Shown here piece by piece: positions 3,810 through 55,305 of a stretch of 64,000 nt of DNA. The position numbers and the translations under genes are program-made. Position 1 is the stretch's first letter. Each line of letters opens with the position of its first letter. The notes beneath the pieces are model-generated. The model was not told the DNA's origin. It made no database searches and saw nothing but the letters and a program-made list of their open reading frames with translations. Origin of the DNA: Patescibacteria group bacterium (GTDB lineage Bacteria > Patescibacteriota > Doudnabacteria > UBA920 > O2-02-FULL-48-8); assembly GCA_036278915.1 (NCBI GenBank), contig DASUKB010000001.1, forward strand, positions 91,892 to 155,891, given 5' to 3'.

Positions 3810-4220
3810 ATGGCTACTCCGGAGTGGGATAAGCTGCTTTCTGCAGCCAACAAGGCGAGATTCAACGCCTATGCGCCTTACTCGGAATTTCTGGTGGGCG
3901 CTTCGGTACAGACAGTCGGCGGCGAAATTTTTTCCGGCTGTAACGTGGAGAACGCTTCCTACGGCCTCACCATCTGTGCCGAGCGCACGGCGCTGGTGAA
4001 AATGGTGTCCGAGATTGCCTTTCCGGTACTTGCGGCTGTCTGCGTCGTACTCAAGGGTGGCCACATGAAAGGCGGATCCCCTTGCGGCGCCTGCCGGCAG
4101 TTTATATGGGAGTTCTGCCGAGGCAACGAGGATGTGCCGGTGCTTATGACCGATCCGGATGACACCGGCAGAAGGTACAGCACTATCGGCCAACTGCTCC
4201 CCGAAGCGTTTGTGTTGTAA
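3810..4220 (+). CDS. cdd: Cytidine deaminase
   Basis: CAERTA (H/C-A-E zinc site) and PCGACRQ motifs. 136 aa, typical of homotetrameric Cdd. Confidence 0.85.
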   Translation: MATPEWDKLLSAANKARFNAYAPYSEFLVGASVQTVGGEIFSGCNVENASYGLTICAERTALVKMVSEIAFPVLAAVCVVLKGGHMKGGSPCGACRQFIWEFCRGNEDVPVLMTDPDDTGRRYSTIGQLLPEAFVL

Positions 4221-4801: not shown

Positions 4802-5044
4802 ATGAGTTACTCTCCGGTCTCAATATGCATCTATTGCATGTTGCGTAGATTTTGGCAGGTGGATCGTCGCGGGCTGAACAAGCTCGAGGCGATGGGCATC
4901 CTCACGGTTGCCACCATTTGTCAAAAGACTCGCCGCGACCTCAGGCAGATACGAGGTGTGGGCAATCTGACGATTGCGGAGGTTGAGCGAATACTCGCCA
5001 TCTTCAACGAGAAGTTGAAAGAAGATCTTCCACTCTTCAGATAA
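4802..5044 (+). CDS. Small helix-hairpin-helix DNA-binding protein (RNAP alpha-CTD-like)
   Basis: 80 aa. The DLRQIRGVGNLTIAEVERIL motif is HhH-like. Strong AAGGAGGAG SD. GC-rich hairpin terminator at 5056-5087. Confidence 0.45.
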   Translation: MSYSPVSICIYCMLRRFWQVDRRGLNKLEAMGILTVATICQKTRRDLRQIRGVGNLTIAEVERILAIFNEKLKEDLPLFR

Positions 5045-7091: not shown

Positions 7092-7190
7092 CAAAGACCC
7101 GAATATAATTCGGGTCCATACTCGAATTATATCACAAAAAGCGGCACTAGTGCCGCTTTTTGCTTTTTTGAATTAAAAATGTCAAAATAA

Positions 7191-8043: not shown

Positions 8044-9297
8044 ATGTCCAACCGAGAACTATGGTCAAAGGTGTTTGAAATAAAAAAATTTGATCTAAAT
8101 AAAGATATTCATTTTATTACCGCAAAGGAGATAAAGCAGATCACTGGCCAAGAGCCAAGGAATATGGCTAAGATGGATAGCACTGCAGATCTGCCGTCTA
8201 TTTTCAAAAATAACGGTTATTTTTTATTACCAATTGAAAATGGGAGATATGAAATTATACGAGGTGAGGGATATCATAAATTAGAAAAAAATAAAAAGAC
8301 AGGTGAATATGATGCAGATATTAAATTTTCTATTACGACTGCTGCCAGGGGTGCAAGTGAGATGGAATATTTAGATTACTCAATTTATACAGGAGTGCTT
8401 GAGAAAATTTTGGGTCTAGGTTCCATGTACCCATCCATCCGAGGGCGTGGCCGAAGCCGAAGTTTTAATTTTTTTGTTAACCGTCATCAAGTGGATGTTT
8501 CAGGTGTCCAACTGGAAGTAGATTCAGGTTTAGAAGCGGAGCATGCCATAGTTCTTATTGAAGCCAAAATGGAGACTCCTGAGGATTTTATTGTCCGACA
8601 ACTTTATTATCCATATAGACATTTTGGCTTGATCTCGCCTTATAAAAAAATTGTCCCAACTTTTTTTACTTATGATTTAGGCAATAAAGTTTATAAATAT
8701 TGGGTTTATGATTTTAAAAACGATGTAGATTACAATTCTATATATTTAAAATCCGTCCATGCTTTTAAAATCATAAGTACCGAACCAGTGGAACTAAGCG
8801 AGCTAAAACCTTTGGAAAACACGCAGATCGCTGATATTCCACAGGCCAATGATCTTGATAAAATTATAACTATGGTTTTTGGTGTTAATGAAAAGATTGA
8901 TGATTATAAAAAAATTGCAAAATATTTTGAGTTTAATGAGCGTCAGAGTAGCTACTATAGACAGGCTGCTGAGTCTTTAGGGTTAATCTCTTCTCATAAA
9001 GGTAAGTATTATCTTACCGATAAAGGGCAGAAATTGATTAAATTGTCTACTTCTGAGAGAAATATATTTTTTATTAAGCTCATCTCGGAATACGAGCTTG
9101 TGAAAAGTAGTTTGGATATTCTTCAGCATAAGTCGGTTTTGACCGATGGAGATTTAGTTAAGCTTGTCCGCCAAAACCATAAAATAAGTGGCAGCACTGT
9201 TATCCGACGCGCTCAATCATTGAAATCTTGGTTAAATTGGATCGCTGAGAGGACAAATACGTTTATAAAAGAAGATAACAAATTTATAGTCTCATAA
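8044..9297 (+). CDS. Putative PD-(D/E)xK restriction-endonuclease-like protein with C-terminal winged-helix domain (probable partner of the Dam-family MTase)
   Basis: Start codon 1 nt after the MTase stop (translational coupling). Candidate nuclease motif ...QLEVDSG...AIVLIEAKME (D...ExK). The C-terminal ~130 aa look wHTH-like (YYRQAAESLGLISSHKGKYYLT). No family can be assigned without a search. Confidence 0.4.
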   Translation: MSNRELWSKVFEIKKFDLNKDIHFITAKEIKQITGQEPRNMAKMDSTADLPSIFKNNGYFLLPIENGRYEIIRGEGYHKLEKNKKTGEYDADIKFSITTAARGASEMEYLDYSIYTGVLEKILGLGSMYPSIRGRGRSRSFNFFVNRHQVDVSGVQLEVDSGLEAEHAIVLIEAKMETPEDFIVRQLYYPYRHFGLISPYKKIVPTFFTYDLGNKVYKYWVYDFKNDVDYNSIYLKSVHAFKIISTEPVELSELKPLENTQIADIPQANDLDKIITMVFGVNEKIDDYKKIAKYFEFNERQSSYYRQAAESLGLISSHKGKYYLTDKGQKLIKLSTSERNIFFIKLISEYELVKSSLDILQHKSVLTDGDLVKLVRQNHKISGSTVIRRAQSLKSWLNWIAERTNTFIKEDNKFIVS

Positions 9298-10620: not shown

Positions 10621-10830
10621 ATGCAACAGGTCCATTATTTCCACAGCCGAAAGCTTATGGAAGCTTTGGAATTTGCGCGCAAGTCCGGATTCCCCGTAAG
10701 GCTGGCTCCGGCGTGCGCGTACGGTGGATGGGTGAAGCTTGCGGACAACGAAGAAGAGTTCAAGACCCTGTTCAAGAAGGCGGCCCGCAGGTCGCCCGGC
10801 AACGAAGTCGAGGTGCAAATCCTCGCATAG
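10621..10830 (+). pseudogene. Isolated ATP-grasp domain fragment (GC-rich, own promoter/SD/terminator)
   Basis: 69 aa. FPVRLAPACAYGGWVKLADNEEEF...NEVEVQ resembles the B-domain of ATP-grasp carboxylases. The rest of the enzyme is absent. Promoter-like TTGACA-16-TAGAAT at ~10572-10600, a GAAGGAGG SD, and a terminator at ~10841-10875. Confidence 0.3.
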
Positions 10831-19896: not shown

Positions 19897-20784
19897 ATGG
19901 AAAGTATGGAACACGAACCTAAACGAGATTTTGCAACAGAGTTTGCCAATTACGAAAAAAAGAAAGAGCAGCAAGCGCAGTCAGCGGAAATCCCCGGATA
20001 CAAAACGGAGCAAGATAATTCCGCCAAGTTTGACGTGGAGCCGATAGGCAACAGCTGGACGCGGAAACTCTATGACGGTGATTTTTTCCAGATGCGCGCG
20101 GACTCCAAATTTCCCGCTTTGAATACGGTGTTTGTGCAGACGCGAGATCTCAATACCGGTGCGGACAATCCCGGTGATCTGGGCGGCGGGGAGACGGATA
20201 AGCACCTCATCTACGAAGGGCTGTCTCGCGTGGCTGCGGATGCGGTCATGGCCGGCGCCAACACGATCCGCGGCTCCGGAGTGGTGCTTTCGGTTTGGCA
20301 TCCGGAACTGGTGGCCTTGCGACGCGAATTGGGATTGCCCAGGCATCCGGCGCAAATCGTGGTCACGGAGTCAGGCAGAGTTGATATGGATTCGGAGCTG
20401 ATGTTCAATATCCCGCAGGTGCCGGTGTACGTGCTCACGTCATCCCGTGGCGCGGAAGTGCTCAAACCATATGTGGAGTCCCGGCCATGGGTACGCGTCT
20501 ATTCCGATGAAACGGTAGACATGAGCAAGCTGCTGGCGCAATTATCTGCCGAACAGAAGATTTCCAGAATTTCGGTAATCGGCGGCCGGACTCTGACATC
20601 TTCTCTTATCGATGGCGGGTTGGTGAAGGATTTGTATCTCACGACTTCGGCCATCAACGGGGGCGAACCGCACACTCCGTTTTACATCGGCCAGAAGATA
20701 CTCCGGATGGACCGGGTACTGCGCAAAACTGGACTTGGCAAAGAAGAAGGCGTGGTGTTTGAACACCTTTCACTTGTTCCCTAA
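19897..20784 (+). CDS. RibD C-terminal domain (dihydrofolate-reductase-like) protein
   Basis: The pattern ...GRTL.SSLIDGGLVKDLYLTTS...G resembles the RibD_C/DHFR-like reductase fold. Weak. Confidence 0.4.
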   Translation: MESMEHEPKRDFATEFANYEKKKEQQAQSAEIPGYKTEQDNSAKFDVEPIGNSWTRKLYDGDFFQMRADSKFPALNTVFVQTRDLNTGADNPGDLGGGETDKHLIYEGLSRVAADAVMAGANTIRGSGVVLSVWHPELVALRRELGLPRHPAQIVVTESGRVDMDSELMFNIPQVPVYVLTSSRGAEVLKPYVESRPWVRVYSDETVDMSKLLAQLSAEQKISRISVIGGRTLTSSLIDGGLVKDLYLTTSAINGGEPHTPFYIGQKILRMDRVLRKTGLGKEEGVVFEHLSLVP

Positions 20785-22024: not shown

Positions 22025-22402
22025 ATGCGCGTTGACTGGGACCGCTACAACGGGCTCGTGTCTATGACTATCACCGGCAAACTCGGTCGGGAAACGGATC
22101 CGCAGCAAAAGGATTTATCGGAATATGTTTCCGACCTTTCCGAAGCAGACCGCAAGGCTCTGGTGTTTGATCTATCCAATGTGACCGGCATCGATACCTA
22201 CGGCATAGGCCAGATGATCTACTGTCAGCAGCTGATTCTCGAATCCGGCGGGAAATCCTGCTGGGTCCTGCCCAAAGAATCAGCCTCGTACGCCAAACTC
22301 CGGCATTTGTTGGACCGGATGCAACTATCAAAGGTGTTCATCTTCTGCGACACCATCCAAGACGGCTACCAGAAGATGTCTGCCAACAAAGGAACCGCTT
22401 AG
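22025..22402 (+). CDS. STAS-domain protein (anti-sigma-factor antagonist-like)
   Basis: VFDLSNVTGIDTYGIGQMI is the SpoIIAA-like STAS core. Terminator at 22393-22433. Confidence 0.6.
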   Translation: MRVDWDRYNGLVSMTITGKLGRETDPQQKDLSEYVSDLSEADRKALVFDLSNVTGIDTYGIGQMIYCQQLILESGGKSCWVLPKESASYAKLRHLLDRMQLSKVFIFCDTIQDGYQKMSANKGTA

Positions 22403-23982: not shown

Positions 23983-24118
23983 ACTTGCATCCGCACCATT
24001 CGCTCGGCAAACTGTTTTTTCTGCGGCACGTCCGATTAACGGACTAAATTCTCTGCCTTTGGAATGGCCTCGAAGTTGCCTTGGAAAGAACAGTTTACCT
24101 CGCTGATACAGATTATTT

Positions 24119-31516: not shown

Positions 31517-31885
31517 TCAGGCACGTTTGTCACGGATCTGGTCGCCGAGCGGAAACATCGGGGGTTTTGGCTGTTCGGGCTTCTGATCAGTCTCCTGTTT
31601 TCTCACCAGTGTGGGCAGCTCGATCTCAGCGCGCTTGCGGAAGTAATTCCCCAGATAAAAGGCGACACGGTTGCCGAGTTCTCCTTTGCGGTTGATCCGG
31701 ACCTTGACCTGAACCCGGAATGGCCCACTTGTGCGCGGCAGATTCCGAATCTCCAACAGCTGGAGATCGAACCCTTGGGAGCGCAACAGGGATTTGACAT
31801 CATGTTCCGTGACTGGCGCTTCGGGTCTGCTCGTCAGGGAAATGAGGGTAATCGGCAGGATCCTGTCCGGAAAATCGTCTGGCAT
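31517..31885 (-). CDS. Hypothetical protein in a GC-rich insert
   Basis: 122 aa. AAGGAGG SD 8 nt upstream of the ATG (read on the minus strand). Composition looks clearly more GC-rich than the flanks. No family recognised. Confidence 0.4.
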   Translation of the reverse strand: MPDDFPDRILPITLISLTSRPEAPVTEHDVKSLLRSQGFDLQLLEIRNLPRTSGPFRVQVKVRINRKGELGNRVAFYLGNYFRKRAEIELPTLVRKQETDQKPEQPKPPMFPLGDQIRDKRA

Positions 31886-33490: not shown

Positions 33491-33519
33491 ACAATCGGGT
33501 CCTGCCACGTTCGTATAGG

Positions 33520-33627
33520 GCTCGGGTCAGCATTTTTTCTCGGACACGTCCGCCTTGGCGGCGGATTAAAGTGCTCGACATTGGAAAGTCTCGCACGTTG
33601 TCCTCGAAAAATATGCCGACCCTCGCT
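33520..33627 (+). repeat. Conserved ~105-nt structured intergenic element, copy 1 (upstream of tatD)
   Basis: About 80-85% identical over ~105 nt to 43046-43148 and 51765-51872. Shared core TAAAGTGCTCGACATTGGAAGGTCTCGCACGTTGTCCTC. T6/A6 outer arms. An inner hairpin varies between copies with compensatory changes. Confidence 0.6.
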
Positions 33628-33640
33628 AATTAAATTTTTT

Positions 33641-40858: not shown

Positions 40859-41791
40859 ATGGACGAAATTCAAGACCCAACCCAAATTCCGAATCAGATA
40901 AGTCCCGAAGCAGTCAGCAATGTCACAACCGAACCCGAAGCTCCGGTAACTATGACCCAGGCTCCTGTGACGTCCGACATTCCGCTTTTGCCCGCGCATT
41001 TTACGGAAATAGACATCAATCTCATAAAGCCCAATCCCTGGCAGCCGCGCAAAATTTTTAAGGAACAGGAATTAGCCGAGCTTTCTGCATCCATAAAAGA
41101 GCATGGCATCCTTCAGCCATTGGTGGTGGTGCCTGACACGGAGGGCACTTACCAGCTTATAGTGGGGGAGAGGCGATTGCGCGCGTCCAAACTGGCCGGA
41201 CTGACCATGGTGCCGGTGATCATCCGTGATGCTATGGAAGAGCGCCAAAAGTTGGAATTGGCGCTTATTGAGAATATTCAGCGGCACAACCTTGACCCCA
41301 TCGAAGAAGCCACGGCCTACCAGCAGCTCATAGACTCCTACCAACTGACGCAAGACCAGGTGTCGCAGAAAGTCGGCAAGAACCGCACCACTGTCACCAA
41401 CACGCTCCGGCTTCTCAATTTGCCGCTCAAAATTCAGCGTGCCATAGCAGAAGAAATAATTTCCGAAGGACACGGACGGGCTATTCTAGGCGTCACCGGC
41501 ATGGAGCGCCAATTGGCTTTGTTTGATGAAGTTGTGGCCGGCGGGTTTACGGTGCGACAAGTAGAGGCGCGCGCCCGCGAAATTATGCAGCGGCCCAAGA
41601 TGCTAAAGATGCCCAAGGCCGTGGCTCCCAAAGACGCCGAAACCGAAGCGCTGGAAAACGAACTTCGCGGCAAGCTTGGGACCAAGGTCAAAGTCCAAAA
41701 AAGCGGCGAGACCGGCAAAATTATGATTGAATTTTTCACAGCCGAGGAACTCAATAATTTTTTGGATAAGGTCCACCGTTTGGAAAATTGA
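40859..41791 (+). CDS. parB: ParB/Spo0J-family partition protein (with ~50-aa N-terminal extension)
   Basis: GILQPLVVVP...YQLIVGERRLRASKLAGL and the Spo0J-type C-terminus GKIMIEFFTAEELNNFLDKV. No parA next to it. Confidence 0.85.
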   Translation: MDEIQDPTQIPNQISPEAVSNVTTEPEAPVTMTQAPVTSDIPLLPAHFTEIDINLIKPNPWQPRKIFKEQELAELSASIKEHGILQPLVVVPDTEGTYQLIVGERRLRASKLAGLTMVPVIIRDAMEERQKLELALIENIQRHNLDPIEEATAYQQLIDSYQLTQDQVSQKVGKNRTTVTNTLRLLNLPLKIQRAIAEEIISEGHGRAILGVTGMERQLALFDEVVAGGFTVRQVEARAREIMQRPKMLKMPKAVAPKDAETEALENELRGKLGTKVKVQKSGETGKIMIEFFTAEELNNFLDKVHRLEN

Positions 41792-41976
41792 CTTGACTAA
41801 ACTTTTTGGTAGGGCTAAACTATCTGTGTTATGAATCTAACCTCTCACATTAACTACTGGTTTATTCTTCGCTCCACTGGTGTGGCTGGGTAGGTTCGTA
41901 TTGCGATTTTGACCCGGCCGCACGTGGCCGGTTTTTTGTTGAGTACATCGTTTGAAAGTTTCCAGGAGGAGACAGA

Positions 41977-42174
41977 ATGGAGATCAGGCCCGAGAACCAT
42001 CCGCAGGTAAAACGGCTCCTTCGCAAAATCGAAGTTGCCCAGAAGCACCCGGAGACACCCCAAGTGCTGGCGGCGATTGCCCGGCATCAGGACGAAATCC
42101 GCCGGCATCTGGGACTGCCGAGACTTCCCCGGCCGGTTCCGACGACCGACAGGGAATACCGCTTGTTCGTGTAG
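41977..42174 (+). CDS. Small hypothetical protein, GC-rich cassette gene 1
   Basis: 65 aa. Strong SD CCAGGAGGAGACAGA before the ATG. Upstream terminator at ~41912-41940. Confidence 0.35.
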   Translation: MEIRPENHPQVKRLLRKIEVAQKHPETPQVLAAIARHQDEIRRHLGLPRLPRPVPTTDREYRLFV

Positions 42175-42183
42175 GAGCCCAAG

Positions 42184-42456
42184 GTGTGCGTGCATAACTT
42201 CCTCCAGCAAGCACTGGATAAGCTCCGAGCAGCCGGCCGCCGTGCGGTCATCAATCTCACTCATGTTCCGAACCTGAATCAACCCGAGATGACCGTAGCC
42301 CTCTATCTTGACGAGCTGAGGTATTATTTCCTCGGCGAAGACTTTCGTCCTTCGTGCTCGGAAATTGCAAGTCGCCGGACGATAGTGTTGGCTATTTTCC
42401 CCCAGAGCATCACGGTAAGGGGAGTTGTCAGCATGGCAGAAAAGAAAGTTGCCTAA
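42184..42456 (+). CDS. Small hypothetical protein, GC-rich cassette gene 2
   Basis: 90 aa. GTG start with a TAGGAG SD 6 nt upstream. Confidence 0.35.
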   Translation: MCVHNFLQQALDKLRAAGRRAVINLTHVPNLNQPEMTVALYLDELRYYFLGEDFRPSCSEIASRRTIVLAIFPQSITVRGVVSMAEKKVA

Positions 42457-42469
42457 GGAGGCAGATCAA

Positions 42470-42631
42470 ATGGAAGAGAAGAAAGAGGAGCAGCCCGACA
42501 AGCTTGTGCCCGCGAAATTCCCGAATGTGGAACCGCCGCAGCGCACAGACGTGCCAATCAACTACGGCAGGCCGGTGAAGTTCGATCCGGATCCGGCTCC
42601 CAAGCCCACGACCCGCACCTTCCGCTCGTGA
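42470..42631 (+). CDS. Small hypothetical Pro/Lys-rich protein, GC-rich cassette gene 3
   Basis: The ATG at 42470 (AAGGAGG 9 nt upstream) is preferred over the ORF-track start at 42425. Followed by a perfect 14-bp-stem terminator at 42644-42687. Confidence 0.35.
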   Translation: MEEKKEEQPDKLVPAKFPNVEPPQRTDVPINYGRPVKFDPDPAPKPTTRTFRS

Positions 42632-42643
42632 ACGGCACCGAGG

Positions 42644-42687
42644 CCTGGAACTTATGCTATCGCATAAGTTCCAGGTCTTTTATTTTT
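42644..42687 (+). terminator. Intrinsic terminator closing the GC-rich three-gene cassette
   Basis: A 14-bp perfect stem CCTGGAACTTATGC / GCATAAGTTCCAGG, then a T-run. Confidence 0.7.
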
Positions 42688-42965
42688 GGCAAACAAAAAG
42701 ACCATGCACAAATTACGTTGCATGGCCTTTGGGCAATTGCTTGGGAGTGATACGTACTTCCGTGATTTTTTTGCCGTCGGGTGTGCGGAAATCAAGGAAT
42801 ACTCCCGGATTGTTGCGGTAAGCTTCCCTTACGAATTCAATATCCATTTCTTGCCTGTGCCACCGATGCCAGAAAACAATTCTCGTCTCCACAGAATCCT
42901 CCTTGCAGGTTAAATATAGTCATTTCACAAAAATTGTAAAGGCTAGTACAATACTTTCGGATCGG

Positions 42966-43039
42966 CGGGGTGTAGTATACCGGTAGTACGCGCCCATGGG
43001 GTGGGTGTAGACCGGGTTCAATTCCCGGCATCCCGACCA
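42966..43039 (+). tRNA. tRNA-Pro (anticodon GGG), CCA encoded
   Basis: Acceptor CGGGGTG/CATCCCG (C1:G72, typical of bacterial tRNA-Pro). U8 A9. D-arm GTAT/GTAC. Anticodon stem CGCCC/GGGTG with loop ATGGGGT. T-arm CCGGG-TTCAATT-CCCGG. Discriminator A plus CCA. Confidence 0.75.
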
Positions 43040-43045
43040 AAATAC

Positions 43046-43148
43046 GCTCGGACATCAGTTTTTTTCGGACACGGCCGCTTCGGGCGGCCTAAAGTGCTCG
43101 ACATTGGAAGGTCTCGCACGTTGTCCTCAAAAAACTGCTGTCCTCGCT
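43046..43148 (+). repeat. Conserved ~105-nt structured intergenic element, copy 2 (downstream of tRNA-Pro)
   Basis: Aligns with the 33520-33627 and 51765-51872 copies. The inner hairpin GGCCGC-ttcgg-GCGGCC has a UUCG-like loop. A classical terminator (43154-43180) follows directly. Confidence 0.6.
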
Positions 43149-43153
43149 TCTAG

Positions 43154-43180
43154 AAAAAAACCACTTCGGTGGGTTTTTTT
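43154..43180 (+). terminator. Intrinsic terminator with UUCG tetraloop (potentially bidirectional)
   Basis: AAAAAAACCAC-TTCG-GTGGGTTTTTTT. Confidence 0.7.
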
Positions 43181-44020: not shown

Positions 44021-44206
44021 ATGGCTAGACCTATAAATAACATTCGCAAACTTACAAAAGTTTCCAGAACTTCATTGGCCGTAGTGATCCCGTCTGATCT
44101 CATCCGGCAGCTTGGGTGGAGGGAGCGGCAGCGGGTGATAGTAAAAAAGATGCCGCGGGGGATACAGATAATTGATGCAATAACGAAAGTTAGAAGTAAG
44201 AAGTGA
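44021..44206 (+). CDS. AbrB/MazE/SpoVT-type swapped-hairpin DNA-binding protein
   Basis: 61 aa. The KVSRTSLAVVIPSDLIRQLGW...RVIV pattern. Its 3' end runs into an AGAAG-rich low-complexity tract. Confidence 0.45.
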   Translation: MARPINNIRKLTKVSRTSLAVVIPSDLIRQLGWRERQRVIVKKMPRGIQIIDAITKVRSKK

Positions 44207-49834: not shown

Positions 49835-50464
49835 TCAGATCAGGCTGCGGAATGCATCCGCTTCCTGCTTGCGCCGTTCCAGCATCAGCTGACGCTGATT
49901 CGTTGTATGCTGCAGGTTGCGCTCCGTGGCCTCGGCGTCGGCCTGGTTCTTCATCGCCCGCCTGTTGTTCTCAGCGATTACGGCACGCTTCCTGTCGCGC
50001 TTCTTCTGTTCGTCATCGGCCGCTTTGAGCGCATCGTGGACCATCGTGTAGGCCTCGACGCGGTTTTCAAACGTGCCGTTGGTCTCGGTGTGCACCGCTT
50101 CGACCGCCTTATTGAACTTCGACTTGAGGCCGGCGAGAAGGTCTTCGTCGTACTTCTCTCCTTCACGCTCTTCGAGCTGACGAGAGAAGTAGGATTTTCG
50201 CGAGATCTCGATGCCGTTGTCCGACACGACACGATCGAGAAATGCGTTGCGTATGAAAGCACCGAAGATGGCGTGGAGACCGTTGATGGCCTCGTTTGCC
50301 GCCCGAACCGCGTTCTGCTCGTCGCCCTTTTCGAGGTGGGAGGCGGTCATGTTGATGTTGGTCCTCACCGTGTCCGGGATACGGAACGATTCGATCTTCT
50401 TGACGGTTCCCAGGAGGGTTACGAGTTGTTCTTTCGCGTCTTGGATCGTGGTGGCTTTGGCCAT
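49835..50464 (-). CDS. Hypothetical helical/charged protein, GC-rich two-gene cassette, gene A
   Basis: 209 aa with an AAGGAG SD. A basic C-terminal stretch (KKRDRKRAVIAENNRRAMKNQ). No family recognised. Confidence 0.4.
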   Translation of the reverse strand: MAKATTIQDAKEQLVTLLGTVKKIESFRIPDTVRTNINMTASHLEKGDEQNAVRAANEAINGLHAIFGAFIRNAFLDRVVSDNGIEISRKSYFSRQLEEREGEKYDEDLLAGLKSKFNKAVEAVHTETNGTFENRVEAYTMVHDALKAADDEQKKRDRKRAVIAENNRRAMKNQADAEATERNLQHTTNQRQLMLERRKQEADAFRSLI

Positions 50465-51245: not shown

Positions 51246-51764
51246 ATGCCACGCAAAGCCAGATCATATGACCGCCATCCAGTGGATGCGGATCACAAAT
51301 ACAACAGCGTTAAGCTGTCTAAGTTTATAAACTACGTTATGACTCGCGGCAAAAAGACTGTTGCCGCTAAAGTCGTGTACGATGCCTTGGATATAATCGC
51401 AAAAGGAGCAACTCCCGCCGAAGGCGGATCCGCCTCCGGCGGAAAAGCCGACCCAAAGGTTTTGTTTGAACAGGCGGTACGGAATGTCTCGCCGATTTTG
51501 GAAGTTAAAGGCCGCCGCATCGGCGGTGCCAACTACCAGGTGCCTATGGAAGTTCAGGAGCCGCGCAAAACTACGCTTGGTATGAAATGGATTATAGACG
51601 CGGCCCGCGCCAAAAAGGGAAAACCCATGGCGGAAAAATTGGCATCCGAACTTATGGAAGCCTACAACAAAACCGGTTCGGCCATCAAAAAGCGCGAAGA
51701 CGTACACAAAATGGCTGAAGCCAACAAGGCTTTTGCGCATTTCGCAAGATTCCAGAGACGGTAG
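51246..51764 (+). CDS. rpsG: 30S ribosomal protein S7
   Basis: [22 protein letters not shown]...; carries an internal insertion ([17 protein letters not shown]). Confidence 0.9.
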
Positions 51765-51872
51765 ATCGCTCGGTCAGAAATTTTTTGTCGGACACGCCCG
51801 CTTAGGGCCGGCTAAAGTGCTCAACATTGGAAGGTTTCGCACGTTGTCCTCCAAAAAATTTCTGCCCTCGCT
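51765..51872 (+). repeat. Conserved ~105-nt structured intergenic element, copy 3 (rpsG-fusA spacer)
   Basis: Aligns with the other two copies. It carries the GAC:GTC to AAC:GTT compensatory change in the central helix and fills the usually short rpsG-fusA spacer. Confidence 0.6.
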
Positions 51873-51893
51873 AATAAACAATTTTAAAATTAC

Positions 51894-55104: not shown

Positions 55105-55305
55105 CTATTGGAATGAAAGCCGGGCAGCGTACCCGAGGGCTGCTGCTGTGATCAGTAGGGAGAAGTAGAACGCCCTGATGATCAATCGGGGATGTTGAAC
55201 GTAGAAGTCGCGGCCAGCGGTCCCCAGGTGTGCCATGTGATAAAGCACAAATCCCAAAAGGATCATGACCGAGGCTGGGATAACGATAAGACAAACCCTT
55301 GCCAT
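55105..55305 (-). CDS. Small 2-TM hypothetical protein in GC-rich insert
   Basis: 66 aa with a GGAGGG SD. GC-rich relative to the flanks. Confidence 0.3.
   Translation of the reverse strand: MARVCLIVIPASVMILLGFVLYHMAHLGTAGRDFYVQHPRLIIRAFYFSLLITAAALGYAARLSFQ

Follow-up and report, generated by a model that had tools for sequence, protein, structure and literature searches.

The window analysed here, a stretch of 64,000 nucleotides from a Patescibacteria group bacterium of the Doudnabacteria lineage (contig DASUKB010000001.1, positions 91,892 to 155,891), contains between parB and a tRNA-Pro gene a cassette of three small open reading frames (ORFs), hereafter ORF1, ORF2 and ORF3, which is preceded by a short leader and closed by an intrinsic terminator. 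The coordinates of these features are collected in Table 1. As a preliminary description of this DNA had reported, each of the three ORFs stands behind an AGGAGG-type Shine-Dalgarno (SD) site. They follow one another at gaps of 9 and 13 nt. The terminator ending the operon was also present as described, its stem being longer than the perfect 14-bp stem mentioned at that time and not fully complementary. Between the cassette and the tRNA lies a further gene of 59 amino acids (aa), convergent on the cassette and outside the operon, so that the cassette is indeed on the 5' side of tRNA-Pro, as stated earlier, without being directly adjacent to it.

Table 1. Features of the parB to tRNA-Pro locus, and other genes with strong SD sites, in window coordinates
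Feature	Position	Strand	Remarks
parB	40859-41791		immediately upstream of the leader and the cassette
Sigma-70-like promoter	41793-41821	+	TTGACT, 17 nt, TAAACT; begins 2 nt past the parB stop; promoter scan
Leader ORF, 20 codons	41831-41893	+	MNLTSHINYWFILRSTGVAG; aromatic codon run Y-W-F
Predicted antiterminator, 5' strand	41880-41891	+	GTGTGGCTGGGT; last leader codons and first base of the stop codon; RNAfold/duplexfold
Predicted antiterminator, 3' strand	41912-41923	+	ACCCGGCCGCAC; overlaps the terminator 5' arm and part of its loop
Intrinsic terminator of the leader	41914-41937	+	CCGGCC, loop GCACGT, GGCCGG (41914-41931), then TTTTTT; conserved in all relatives
ORF1	41977-42174	+	65 aa, ATG; SD AGGAGG at 41964-41969, spacing 7 nt
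ORF2	42184-42456	+	90 aa, GTG; SD TAGGAG at 42172-42177, spacing 6 nt, overlaps the ORF1 stop
ORF3	42470-42631	+	53 aa, ATG; SD AAGGAGG at 42455-42461, spacing 8 nt, overlaps the ORF2 stop
Operon-ending intrinsic terminator	42640-42689	+	17-18 bp stem (42640-42679), 94% complementary, then TTTTATTTTT; terminator scan and inverted-repeat search
59-aa gene, outside the operon	42713-42892	-	convergent on the cassette; own SD AAGGAGG and promoter-like site
tRNA-Pro (GGG)	42966-43039	+	ARAGORN and Rfam; downstream landmark
Genes with strong AGGAGG-type sites	2647-2976, 3810-4220, 4802-5044, 10621-10830, 19897-20784, 22025-22402, 31517-31885(-), 49835-50464(-), 55105-55305(-)		

For comparison, 45 parB loci were gathered from genomes and metagenomes (labels such as L003 and L004 refer to these loci), the best match coming from a Candidatus Doudnabacteria metagenome-assembled genome (MAG). 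The closest distinct relatives are five in number, namely L003, L004, L005, L006 (represented also by L032) and L007 (represented also by L033), and their parB genes are 68-74% identical to that of the window. L006/L032 and L007/L033 are the only near-identical contig pairs, with differences at 0-2 positions. Several MAGs whose parB loci clearly belong to the same lineage of the candidate phyla radiation (CPR), including L004, L006, L007 and others, are labelled Saccharibacteria, Binatia or Verrucomicrobiia, a sign of mistakes in the binning or the taxonomy of public assemblies.

The spacer of about 180 nt between parB and the first SD-led ORF can be aligned across six genomes, and the window shares with L003 to L007 a conserved 150-nt element directly after parB, with one full copy per locus (nhmmer E-values from 1e-23 to 2e-30). 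It contains a sigma-70-like promoter, the -10 box of which ends 9 nt before the leader ATG in the window and 7-9 nt before it in all six leaders of this kind (type 1), where the promoter is conserved and no SD is present. The leader ORF has homologues of 18-20 codons in L003 to L007, with indels that are multiples of three. The peptides, which are MNLTSHINYWFILRSTGVAG in the window, MKIHSANSFWFYFYTDALAG in L003, MLINQTANYFWFYFNHRTMV in L004, MNSVRHLICKWFFIHTTPVG in L005, MKSVISQNFWYHFTDTRVG in L006 and MKLAHRNFWFYFTDYMAG in L007, share the motif N[FY]WF[YFI][FLI], and in all six leaders an invariant Trp codon lies in a stretch of three to six aromatic codons that follow one another directly or nearly so. 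From this arrangement, the leader ORF is probably translated as a leaderless mRNA. Among the native genes of the window, a -10 box was found 5-12 nt upstream of 10 of 49 starts, vs. about 3.7 expected; as this enrichment is only moderate, leaderless initiation is not claimed to be general.

The leader ORF is followed by an intrinsic terminator, and ORF1 starts 45 nt after the beginning of its T-run. In the relatives, the first SD also follows the T-run closely, as read by eye from the alignment. The promoter scan detected no promoter-like site between this terminator and ORF1 in the window, and the relatives leave little room for one; the cargo must therefore be transcribed by read-through. 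The GC-rich hairpin which the preliminary description had placed upstream as a boundary of the cassette is a terminator, as proposed, and more than a boundary, being the terminator of a predicted and conserved leader-peptide attenuator. The leader gave no match in Rfam even at permissive thresholds, and no convincing further unit made of a terminator followed by an SD-led ORF was found within the window.

The 3' end of the leader ORF can pair with the 5' arm of this terminator. In the window, the predicted antiterminator has a 12-bp core, and the free energy (dG) of the whole duplex is -27.5 kcal/mol, vs. -12.8 kcal/mol for the terminator. Across the six type-1 leaders, the antiterminator duplexes range from -12.6 to -27.5 kcal/mol and the terminators from -6.3 to -15.5 kcal/mol, the 5' strand of the antiterminator always lying within the last 25 nt or so of the leader ORF. 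Folding was then performed with nucleotides masked to mimic a ribosome, a stall being represented by an A site at the Trp codon and a mask extending to +15 nt. With the ribosome at the Trp codon, the predicted terminator probability was about 0 in all six sequences, the leader 3' end pairing with the terminator 5' arm, and with the ribosome at the stop codon it was 0.95-0.99 in all six (0.00 and 0.99, respectively, in the window). Without a ribosome, four of the six RNAs favoured the antiterminator and two the terminator. When the spacer was dinucleotide-shuffled, the mean terminator probabilities were 0.66-0.94, and values of 0.05 or less were obtained in 0-13% of the shuffles. The two alternative structures are, in this respect, predictions resting on thermodynamics and on positional conservation in ten related elements, six of which are of type 1.

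The four other elements represent a second, paralogous leader type, located within the small-ORF islands that separate parB from tRNA-Pro in the relatives (L003 7895-8112, L004 7554-7753, L006 7224-7445 and L007 4966-5182). These type-2 leaders comprise a promoter, an ORF of 31-37 codons (motif TQIIxG...VPVxVGS..RKR), a predicted antiterminator (GTCGGTTCA/TGAACCGAC) and a terminator, and are followed by further SD-led ORFs. Instead of the aromatic run, they carry an Ile/Leu/Phe-rich core. The two copies that were folded (L003 and L004) gave the same predicted switch, with shuffle means of 0.97-0.99, and complementary antiterminator strands are visible in the sequences of the L006 and L007 copies. 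Type 2 is absent from the window and from L005.

Based on these elements, it is considered reasonably probable (roughly 60%) that the cassette is the cargo of a ribosome-mediated, i.e. leader-peptide, transcription attenuator conserved in a Doudnabacteria-like CPR subclade. The promoter directly after parB would give rise to an essentially leaderless transcript, the first 20 codons of which (the leader ORF) include the aromatic run. If translation proceeded smoothly to the stop codon, the ribosome would cover the leader 3' end, the terminator would form and transcription would end. If the ribosome stalled at the Tyr-Trp-Phe codons, because charged aromatic tRNAs were scarce or because of another translation stress, or if the leader were not translated at all, the leader 3' end would pair with the terminator 5' arm. 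RNA polymerase could then read into ORF1-ORF3, whose translation would be driven by the strong SDs, ORF2 and ORF3 being coupled to the preceding stops. The cargo, made of a basic helical hairpin, a 90-aa protein and a Pro-rich peptide, would in that case consist of stress- or starvation-induced small proteins. Leaderless translation, the sensing of aromatic codons and this function of the cargo are what we infer from the anatomy of the locus, which itself, like its conservation, is directly observed.

The same three ORFs are found in the gene calls of an identical public 7.4-kb Logan contig. Among the NCBI proteins of a 386-kb contig, VFX17_00745 corresponds to ORF1 and VFX17_00750 to a 55-aa form of ORF2 starting at 42289, while ORF3 is apparently unannotated, its sole database entry deriving from the Logan assembly. 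The current annotation thus partly misses this small-protein set, ORF2 being truncated and ORF3 apparently not called. SD-like pentamers (GGAGG/AGGAG) occur 112 times on the plus strand of the 64 kb, or roughly once per 570 nt by our own rough estimate; on that basis, three consecutive starts each provided by chance with such a pentamer at 6-8 nt would be very unlikely. A codon-usage model was trained on 43 native genes and the six frames were compared, native 60-codon chunks having a margin of 0.16 +/- 0.08 nats per codon. The model ranked the annotated frame first of six for ORF1, ORF2 and ORF3, with margins of 0.08, 0.02 and 0.21 nats per codon, respectively, the strongest coding-frame margin of the three being that of ORF3. 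It rejected the alternative plus-strand ORFs.

The opposite view, according to which these ORFs are the open-frame noise of GC-rich DNA, in a non-coding 3' extension or a decaying remnant, is quite unlikely. It can draw on the long ORFs present in several frames, on the lack of homologues of ORF2 and ORF3, and on margins for ORF1 and ORF2 that are low in comparison with native genes. As had been noticed before, antisense ORFs overlap the cassette. They include one of 142 aa (41854-42282), against which the codon model speaks only weakly. The assignment to the plus strand rests mainly on the SDs, the terminators and synteny. Against noise stand the three consecutive strong SDs, two of which overlap the preceding stop, the very short gaps between the ORFs, the same SD-led packing in all relatives, the rejection of the other plus-strand frames and the conservation of ORF1 at the protein level in L005.

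ORF1 and ORF2 share the same reading frame and are separated by a TAG and three codons (TAG GAG CCC AAG GTG, 42172-42186). Read-through or recoding of this stop codon was examined and rejected: since ORF2 has its own SD, overlapping the ORF1 stop, the arrangement was judged to be one of translational coupling. ORF1 is a basic protein with a Pro/Arg-rich tail, for which single-sequence AlphaFold2 (AF2) predicts a helical hairpin (helices 9-22 and 28-45) followed by a disordered Pro/Arg tail, with a predicted local distance difference test (pLDDT) score of 72. A Foldseek comparison of this model with the PDB returned only generic helical hairpins (E-values of at least 3). The AF2 model of ORF2 is uninformative (pLDDT 41). 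As for ORF3, it has an acidic N-terminus and is proline-rich (about 23% Pro, as counted from the translation).

The preliminary description had found the three proteins unrecognisable, and they remain so. Neither ORF1-ORF3 nor the 59-aa gene matched Pfam, PHROGs, PADLOC or NCBIfam, and a word-indexed search of 5.8 billion clustered proteins returned only self-matches for the three ORFs. A full HMMER scan of 1.84 billion representatives gave one extra match for ORF2 (E-value 1e-5) to a tandem-repeat protein, which was discarded as spurious given a pairwise E-value of 2. When 32 small ORFs (ORF1-ORF3, the 59-aa gene and 28 ORFs from the relatives) were compared with Pfam and PHROGs, only marginal single matches were obtained (E-values of at least 0.0015). 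ORF1 and ORF2 had no match in IMG/VR, where two leader-motif DNA patterns from the relatives had no exact match either, and blastn and tblastn searches detected no similarity in GenBank phages (INPHARED) or in PLSDB plasmids. The suggestion that the cassette might be a phage-derived module accordingly found no echo in any of these three collections.

That description had also envisaged a toxin-antitoxin-like module, in which the 90-aa ORF2 would pair with its small neighbours, and an anti-phage defence module may be considered along with it. The genes are small, adjacent and translationally coupled, and a MazE/AbrB-like antitoxin gene (44021-44206; Pfam E-value 1.6e-5), an orphan with no obvious toxin partner, lies 1.4 kb downstream. 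Such a module is nevertheless most improbable: no toxin or antitoxin domain was found in ORF1-ORF3 in Pfam, NCBIfam or PADLOC at E-values up to 1 and PHROGs gave no match either, ORF2 has no confident fold, nothing in the PDB resembles the ORF1 hairpin significantly in structure, and the arrays of the relatives consist of three to nine unrelated small ORFs, not of conserved pairs.

Several points weigh against the attenuator itself. The cargo is unrelated to aromatic amino-acid metabolism, ORF1-ORF3 and the 28 ORFs of the relatives having no meaningful family match; because of this missing link with the amino acids sensed, the system would work like the attenuators of amino-acid operons without being one of them. 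In the codon model, a coding signal is missing from the first 35 codons of ORF2, which leaves the start of this ORF uncertain (42184, or 42289 as at NCBI). Column covariation in a MAFFT alignment of the six sequences was not significant: 63.9% of the cells pair in the proposed register, vs. 21-46% in slid registers, and 141 of 500 shuffles reached an equal value, in a test limited by few sequences, by helices shifting register and by a conserved core. The sequences number no more than ten, six of type 1 and four of type 2, and share a common descent. The helix core (GGCCGG/CCGGCC-like) is self-similar, and the Ala/Val-Gly at the C-terminus of the peptide could account for part of the conservation of this core. 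Finally, the leaders are partly conserved at the nucleotide level, as illustrated by a block of 21 identical nucleotides (CTCACCCAAATTATTTTGGGC) in type 2 of L003 and L004; this conservation could be that of an RNA or DNA motif and not of codon sensing, and the type-2 ORFs, with their 31-37 aa and conserved motif, could be functional microproteins.

Another explanation is that the tiny ORF stands alone, as the gene of a microprotein or as a small RNA, with an independent cargo, its 3' end being complementary to the terminator arm only incidentally. The conserved motifs of both leader types (FWFYF in type 1, and the type-2 motif given above), the presence of a promoter and a terminator of their own and the non-significant covariation are what one would expect from it. 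This explanation is nonetheless considered improbable, since all ten elements, those of type 2 with different flanking pairs among them, have the predicted antiterminator, which shuffles rarely reproduce, and since the first SD-led ORF has no promoter-like site of its own in the window. A small RNA also finds no match in Rfam, and the in-frame indels argue against a purely non-coding RNA.

The attenuator and its cargo belong to a locus whose architecture is shared with the close relatives. Whereas tRNA-Pro follows parB after only 100-130 nt or so, with nothing between them, in the more distant L012, L013, L015 and L020 (parB about 50% identical), the gap is 1.4-2.7 kb in the close relatives, the contig of L006 ending before it could be measured. 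The islands filling this gap are arrays of three to nine same-strand small ORFs of 35-120 aa, nearly all behind AAGGAGG-type sites, and the four that could be delimited (L003, L004, L005 and L007) have a higher GC content than any same-size window in their own locus. Their ORF sequences differ from genome to genome and match no family, with the exceptions of ORF1 and the 59-aa gene. In L005, the array opens with a homologue of ORF1 as its first cargo gene (47% identity over 38 aa, pairwise E-value 5e-8), and an ORF1-like profile searched across the islands gave suggestive ranks to L003 8503-8760 (E-value 0.18) and L007 6109-6426 (E-value 1), which are possibly further relatives of ORF1. For ORF2 and ORF3, none of the relatives has a counterpart, and both are unique to the present genome. 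The presence/absence comparison suggested by the preliminary description therefore gave a divided answer, the architecture and, in L005, ORF1 being shared, ORF2 and ORF3 being unique, and the island being absent from the four distant loci. With a shared architecture, differing ORFs and two ORFs found nowhere else, the locus type is conserved in the subclade while its contents turn over or diverge quickly.

As for base composition, the GC content of 41950-42690 is 56.3%, at the 99.4th percentile of 741-bp windows (mean 46.8%, standard deviation 5.0%), and only 0.1% of the same-size windows elsewhere exceed the 57.1% of 41940-42640, to be compared with 46.6% for the window as a whole. The GC profile is thus not uniform and the GC-rich stretch of about 700 bp reported earlier does exist. 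Its sharp contrast with the surroundings is another matter, since parB next door has 52% GC and a GC content at third codon positions (GC3) of 0.60, and values up to 57.5% occur in a few other parts of the window. It was equally correct that most native genes have no SD, an SD core of at least 5 nt being found in only a handful of about 65 long ORFs of the window. Strong SDs do occur, however, at the genes for cytidine deaminase, a STAS protein and a RibD_C protein, and for this reason an SD is not a mark of foreign DNA here. A high GC content combined with SDs in an SD-poor genome should be treated with caution before being taken as evidence of recent horizontal transfer; in the present case, this combination is stably associated with a type of locus that is itself conserved.

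The minority of genes with strong AGGAGG-type sites (Table 1), whose GC3 tends to be higher (0.59-0.77), includes both ordinary genes and small ORFs without database homologues. The genome therefore seems to have two classes of translation-initiation regions. A recurring TAATTTCTAA-like motif was also noticed just 5' of the SD-less native starts 13946, 44477, 59883 and 62819 (and 51246, as its reverse complement), and may be an alternative translation-initiation or promoter element.

The composition of the cassette and its position raise the question of a recently acquired mobile element, in which foreign GC-rich DNA from a host, a phage or an integrative element would have entered at a tRNA-Pro hot spot, the upstream hairpin being simply the terminator of parB. 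Its appeal lies in the elevated GC and GC3, in ORF2 and ORF3 having no counterpart, in a parB to tRNA-Pro gene content that differs in every genome, in the direct neighbourhood of parB and tRNA-Pro in distant relatives, and in a rearrangement at the locus, the unit made of tRNA-Pro and the 59-aa gene being inverted with respect to L004. However, no integrase or transposase was identified by Pfam among the ORFs of a span reaching about 6 kb to the 5' side and 9 kb to the 3' side, in which four ORFs of 100-210 aa matched no family, and no convincing att-like repeats flank the cassette. The latter lies 5' of the tRNA and is separated from it by another gene. The protein libraries of 5.8 and 1.8 billion entries, phages, plasmids and IMG/VR yielded neither a donor nor a homologue, and the codon usage of the cassette fits the native model. 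Moreover, the GC elevation and the SD-led small ORFs are common to the islands of the close relatives, at the same site and behind the same leader, and ORF1 is conserved with L005. Recent acquisition is for these reasons judged unlikely. Of the earlier idea of an insertion at the tRNA, what stands is the insertion itself, as seen by comparison with the distant relatives; its recency and mobility do not, for want of an integrase, att repeats and a donor. The data are compatible with an ancient insertion between parB and tRNA-Pro and a recent turnover of ORF2 and ORF3.

A match of 15 out of 18 nt between 42080-42097, within ORF1, and the tRNA-Pro 3' end at 43024-43041 (CCCGGCATCAGGACGAAA vs. CCCGGCATCCCGACCAAA) was considered as a possible att-like pair and attributed to chance, because it lies inside a coding frame and has no partner at a boundary. 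In L013, a partial duplicate of the 3' half of tRNA-Pro (7097-7138; 81% over 42 nt) is present directly after tRNA-Pro and looks like an att-type scar of an integration event.

Concerning the neighbourhood, the gene order 5' of the cassette is Sua5, SHMT, PAP2, an ATP-binding cassette (ABC) permease and ATPase, and parB. On the 3' side, the 59-aa gene and tRNA-Pro are followed by a gene for a 249-aa membrane-anchored protein, the orphan MazE-like gene and a truncated four-helix-bundle ORF (TIGR02436; 44280-44522), and then by mscL, a gene for a PAS-GGDEF-EAL protein and rpsL/rpsG/fusA. On either side of the truncated ORF are inverted repeats of 25 nt (88% complementary), as well as direct repeats GAAGTNAGAAG spaced about 30 nt apart. 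In L004, a homologue of the 59-aa gene adjoins tRNA-Pro (8843-9031; pairwise E-value 7e-8), and the two genes, divergent from each other, form a unit (8678-9031) which is inverted relative to parB when compared with 42713-43039 of the window. The tRNA-Pro of L003 (9404-9477) is also on the minus strand, and no homologue of the 59-aa gene was detected there.

Structured intergenic repeats about 105-120 nt long form a family in the window, with copies at 43042-43158, i.e. directly 3' of tRNA-Pro, at 33515-33633 and at 51763-51882, and a weaker copy at 24000-24111. RNAalifold applied to three copies gave a structure of 36 pairs (-42 kcal/mol), eight of which show compensatory double changes, around the invariant core TAAAGTGCTCGACATTGGAAGGTCTCGCACGTTGTCCTC. 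The family has no match in Rfam and is absent from the parB loci of the relatives.

Gene regulation in the CPR/Patescibacteria has been little explored, and a full-text search of the literature returned no report of leader-peptide attenuation in these bacteria. CPR bacteria are generally thought to be devoid of amino-acid biosynthesis. If the attenuator reading holds, it would provide a concrete sensor of translation or amino-acid status in organisms that take amino acids from their host, linked to a rapidly evolving set of small proteins. A broader and rather doubtful extension is that of a CPR-specific module, in which paralogous short-ORF attenuators would sense ribosome stalling, each gating an array of hypervariable SD-led small proteins. 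Since episymbionts depend on their hosts for amino acids, these arrays could then be starvation-triggered effectors or regulators of host interaction, i.e. a new class of cargo and a new biological use of attenuation.

Among known systems, the classical leader-peptide attenuators of amino-acid operons, such as E. coli trpL, pheL/pheA, pheM/pheST, hisL and leuL, offer the first comparison. As in the trp and phe types, the short ORF carries a run of codons for one class of amino acids, and NFWFYF was compared in this respect with pheM. Again as in the classical cases, the ORF shares sequence with the 5' strand of an antiterminator, here a predicted one, which is in competition with an intrinsic terminator just 5' of the regulated genes, and the position of the ribosome is predicted to decide between them. 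The cargo here is, however, a variable array of small proteins instead of biosynthetic genes or a tRNA synthetase gene, the organism belongs to the CPR, the leader appears to be leaderless and has no SD, and the "1:2" pause/anti-antiterminator hairpin is clear in some copies only (e.g. L004 type 2).

With arrest-peptide leaders that respond to a drug or a metabolite, such as ermCL and tnaC, the present leader shares a length of about 19-24 aa, a conserved hydrophobic/aromatic core and, by prediction, a stalling event that switches on downstream expression. KWFNID in TnaC can be set beside KWFFIH in L005, these segments being too short for a sequence test of relatedness. There is no resistance or tryptophanase cargo here. 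The tnaC system depends on Rho and its ribosome stalls at the stop codon, whereas in the present case termination is what a ribosome at that codon is predicted to favour.

The cargo itself recalls tRNA-linked islands and integron arrays in its same-strand, promoterless small ORFs, its variable content, its location near a tRNA gene and its atypical composition. It differs from them in that integrase, att or attC sites and flanking direct repeats are all absent; in particular, no attC-like inverted repeats were found in the 9- and 13-nt gaps between the ORFs. Unlike an integron, the array is headed by a conserved promoter and a predicted attenuator, and not by a Pc promoter.

A further parallel is provided by the polycysteine leaderless short ORFs of mycobacteria, which act as attenuators (Canestrari et al., bioRxiv 10.1101/834739). 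They differ from the present leader, for which the structure to be remodelled is an intrinsic terminator, implying transcriptional control, and the cargo has no known function. In both cases, a short ORF, leaderless in mycobacteria and probably so here, is the first cistron of a polycistronic transcript, and a run of codons would sense the supply of an amino acid, the stalled ribosome remodelling the downstream mRNA (10.1101/834739), as we infer for the parB-linked leader.

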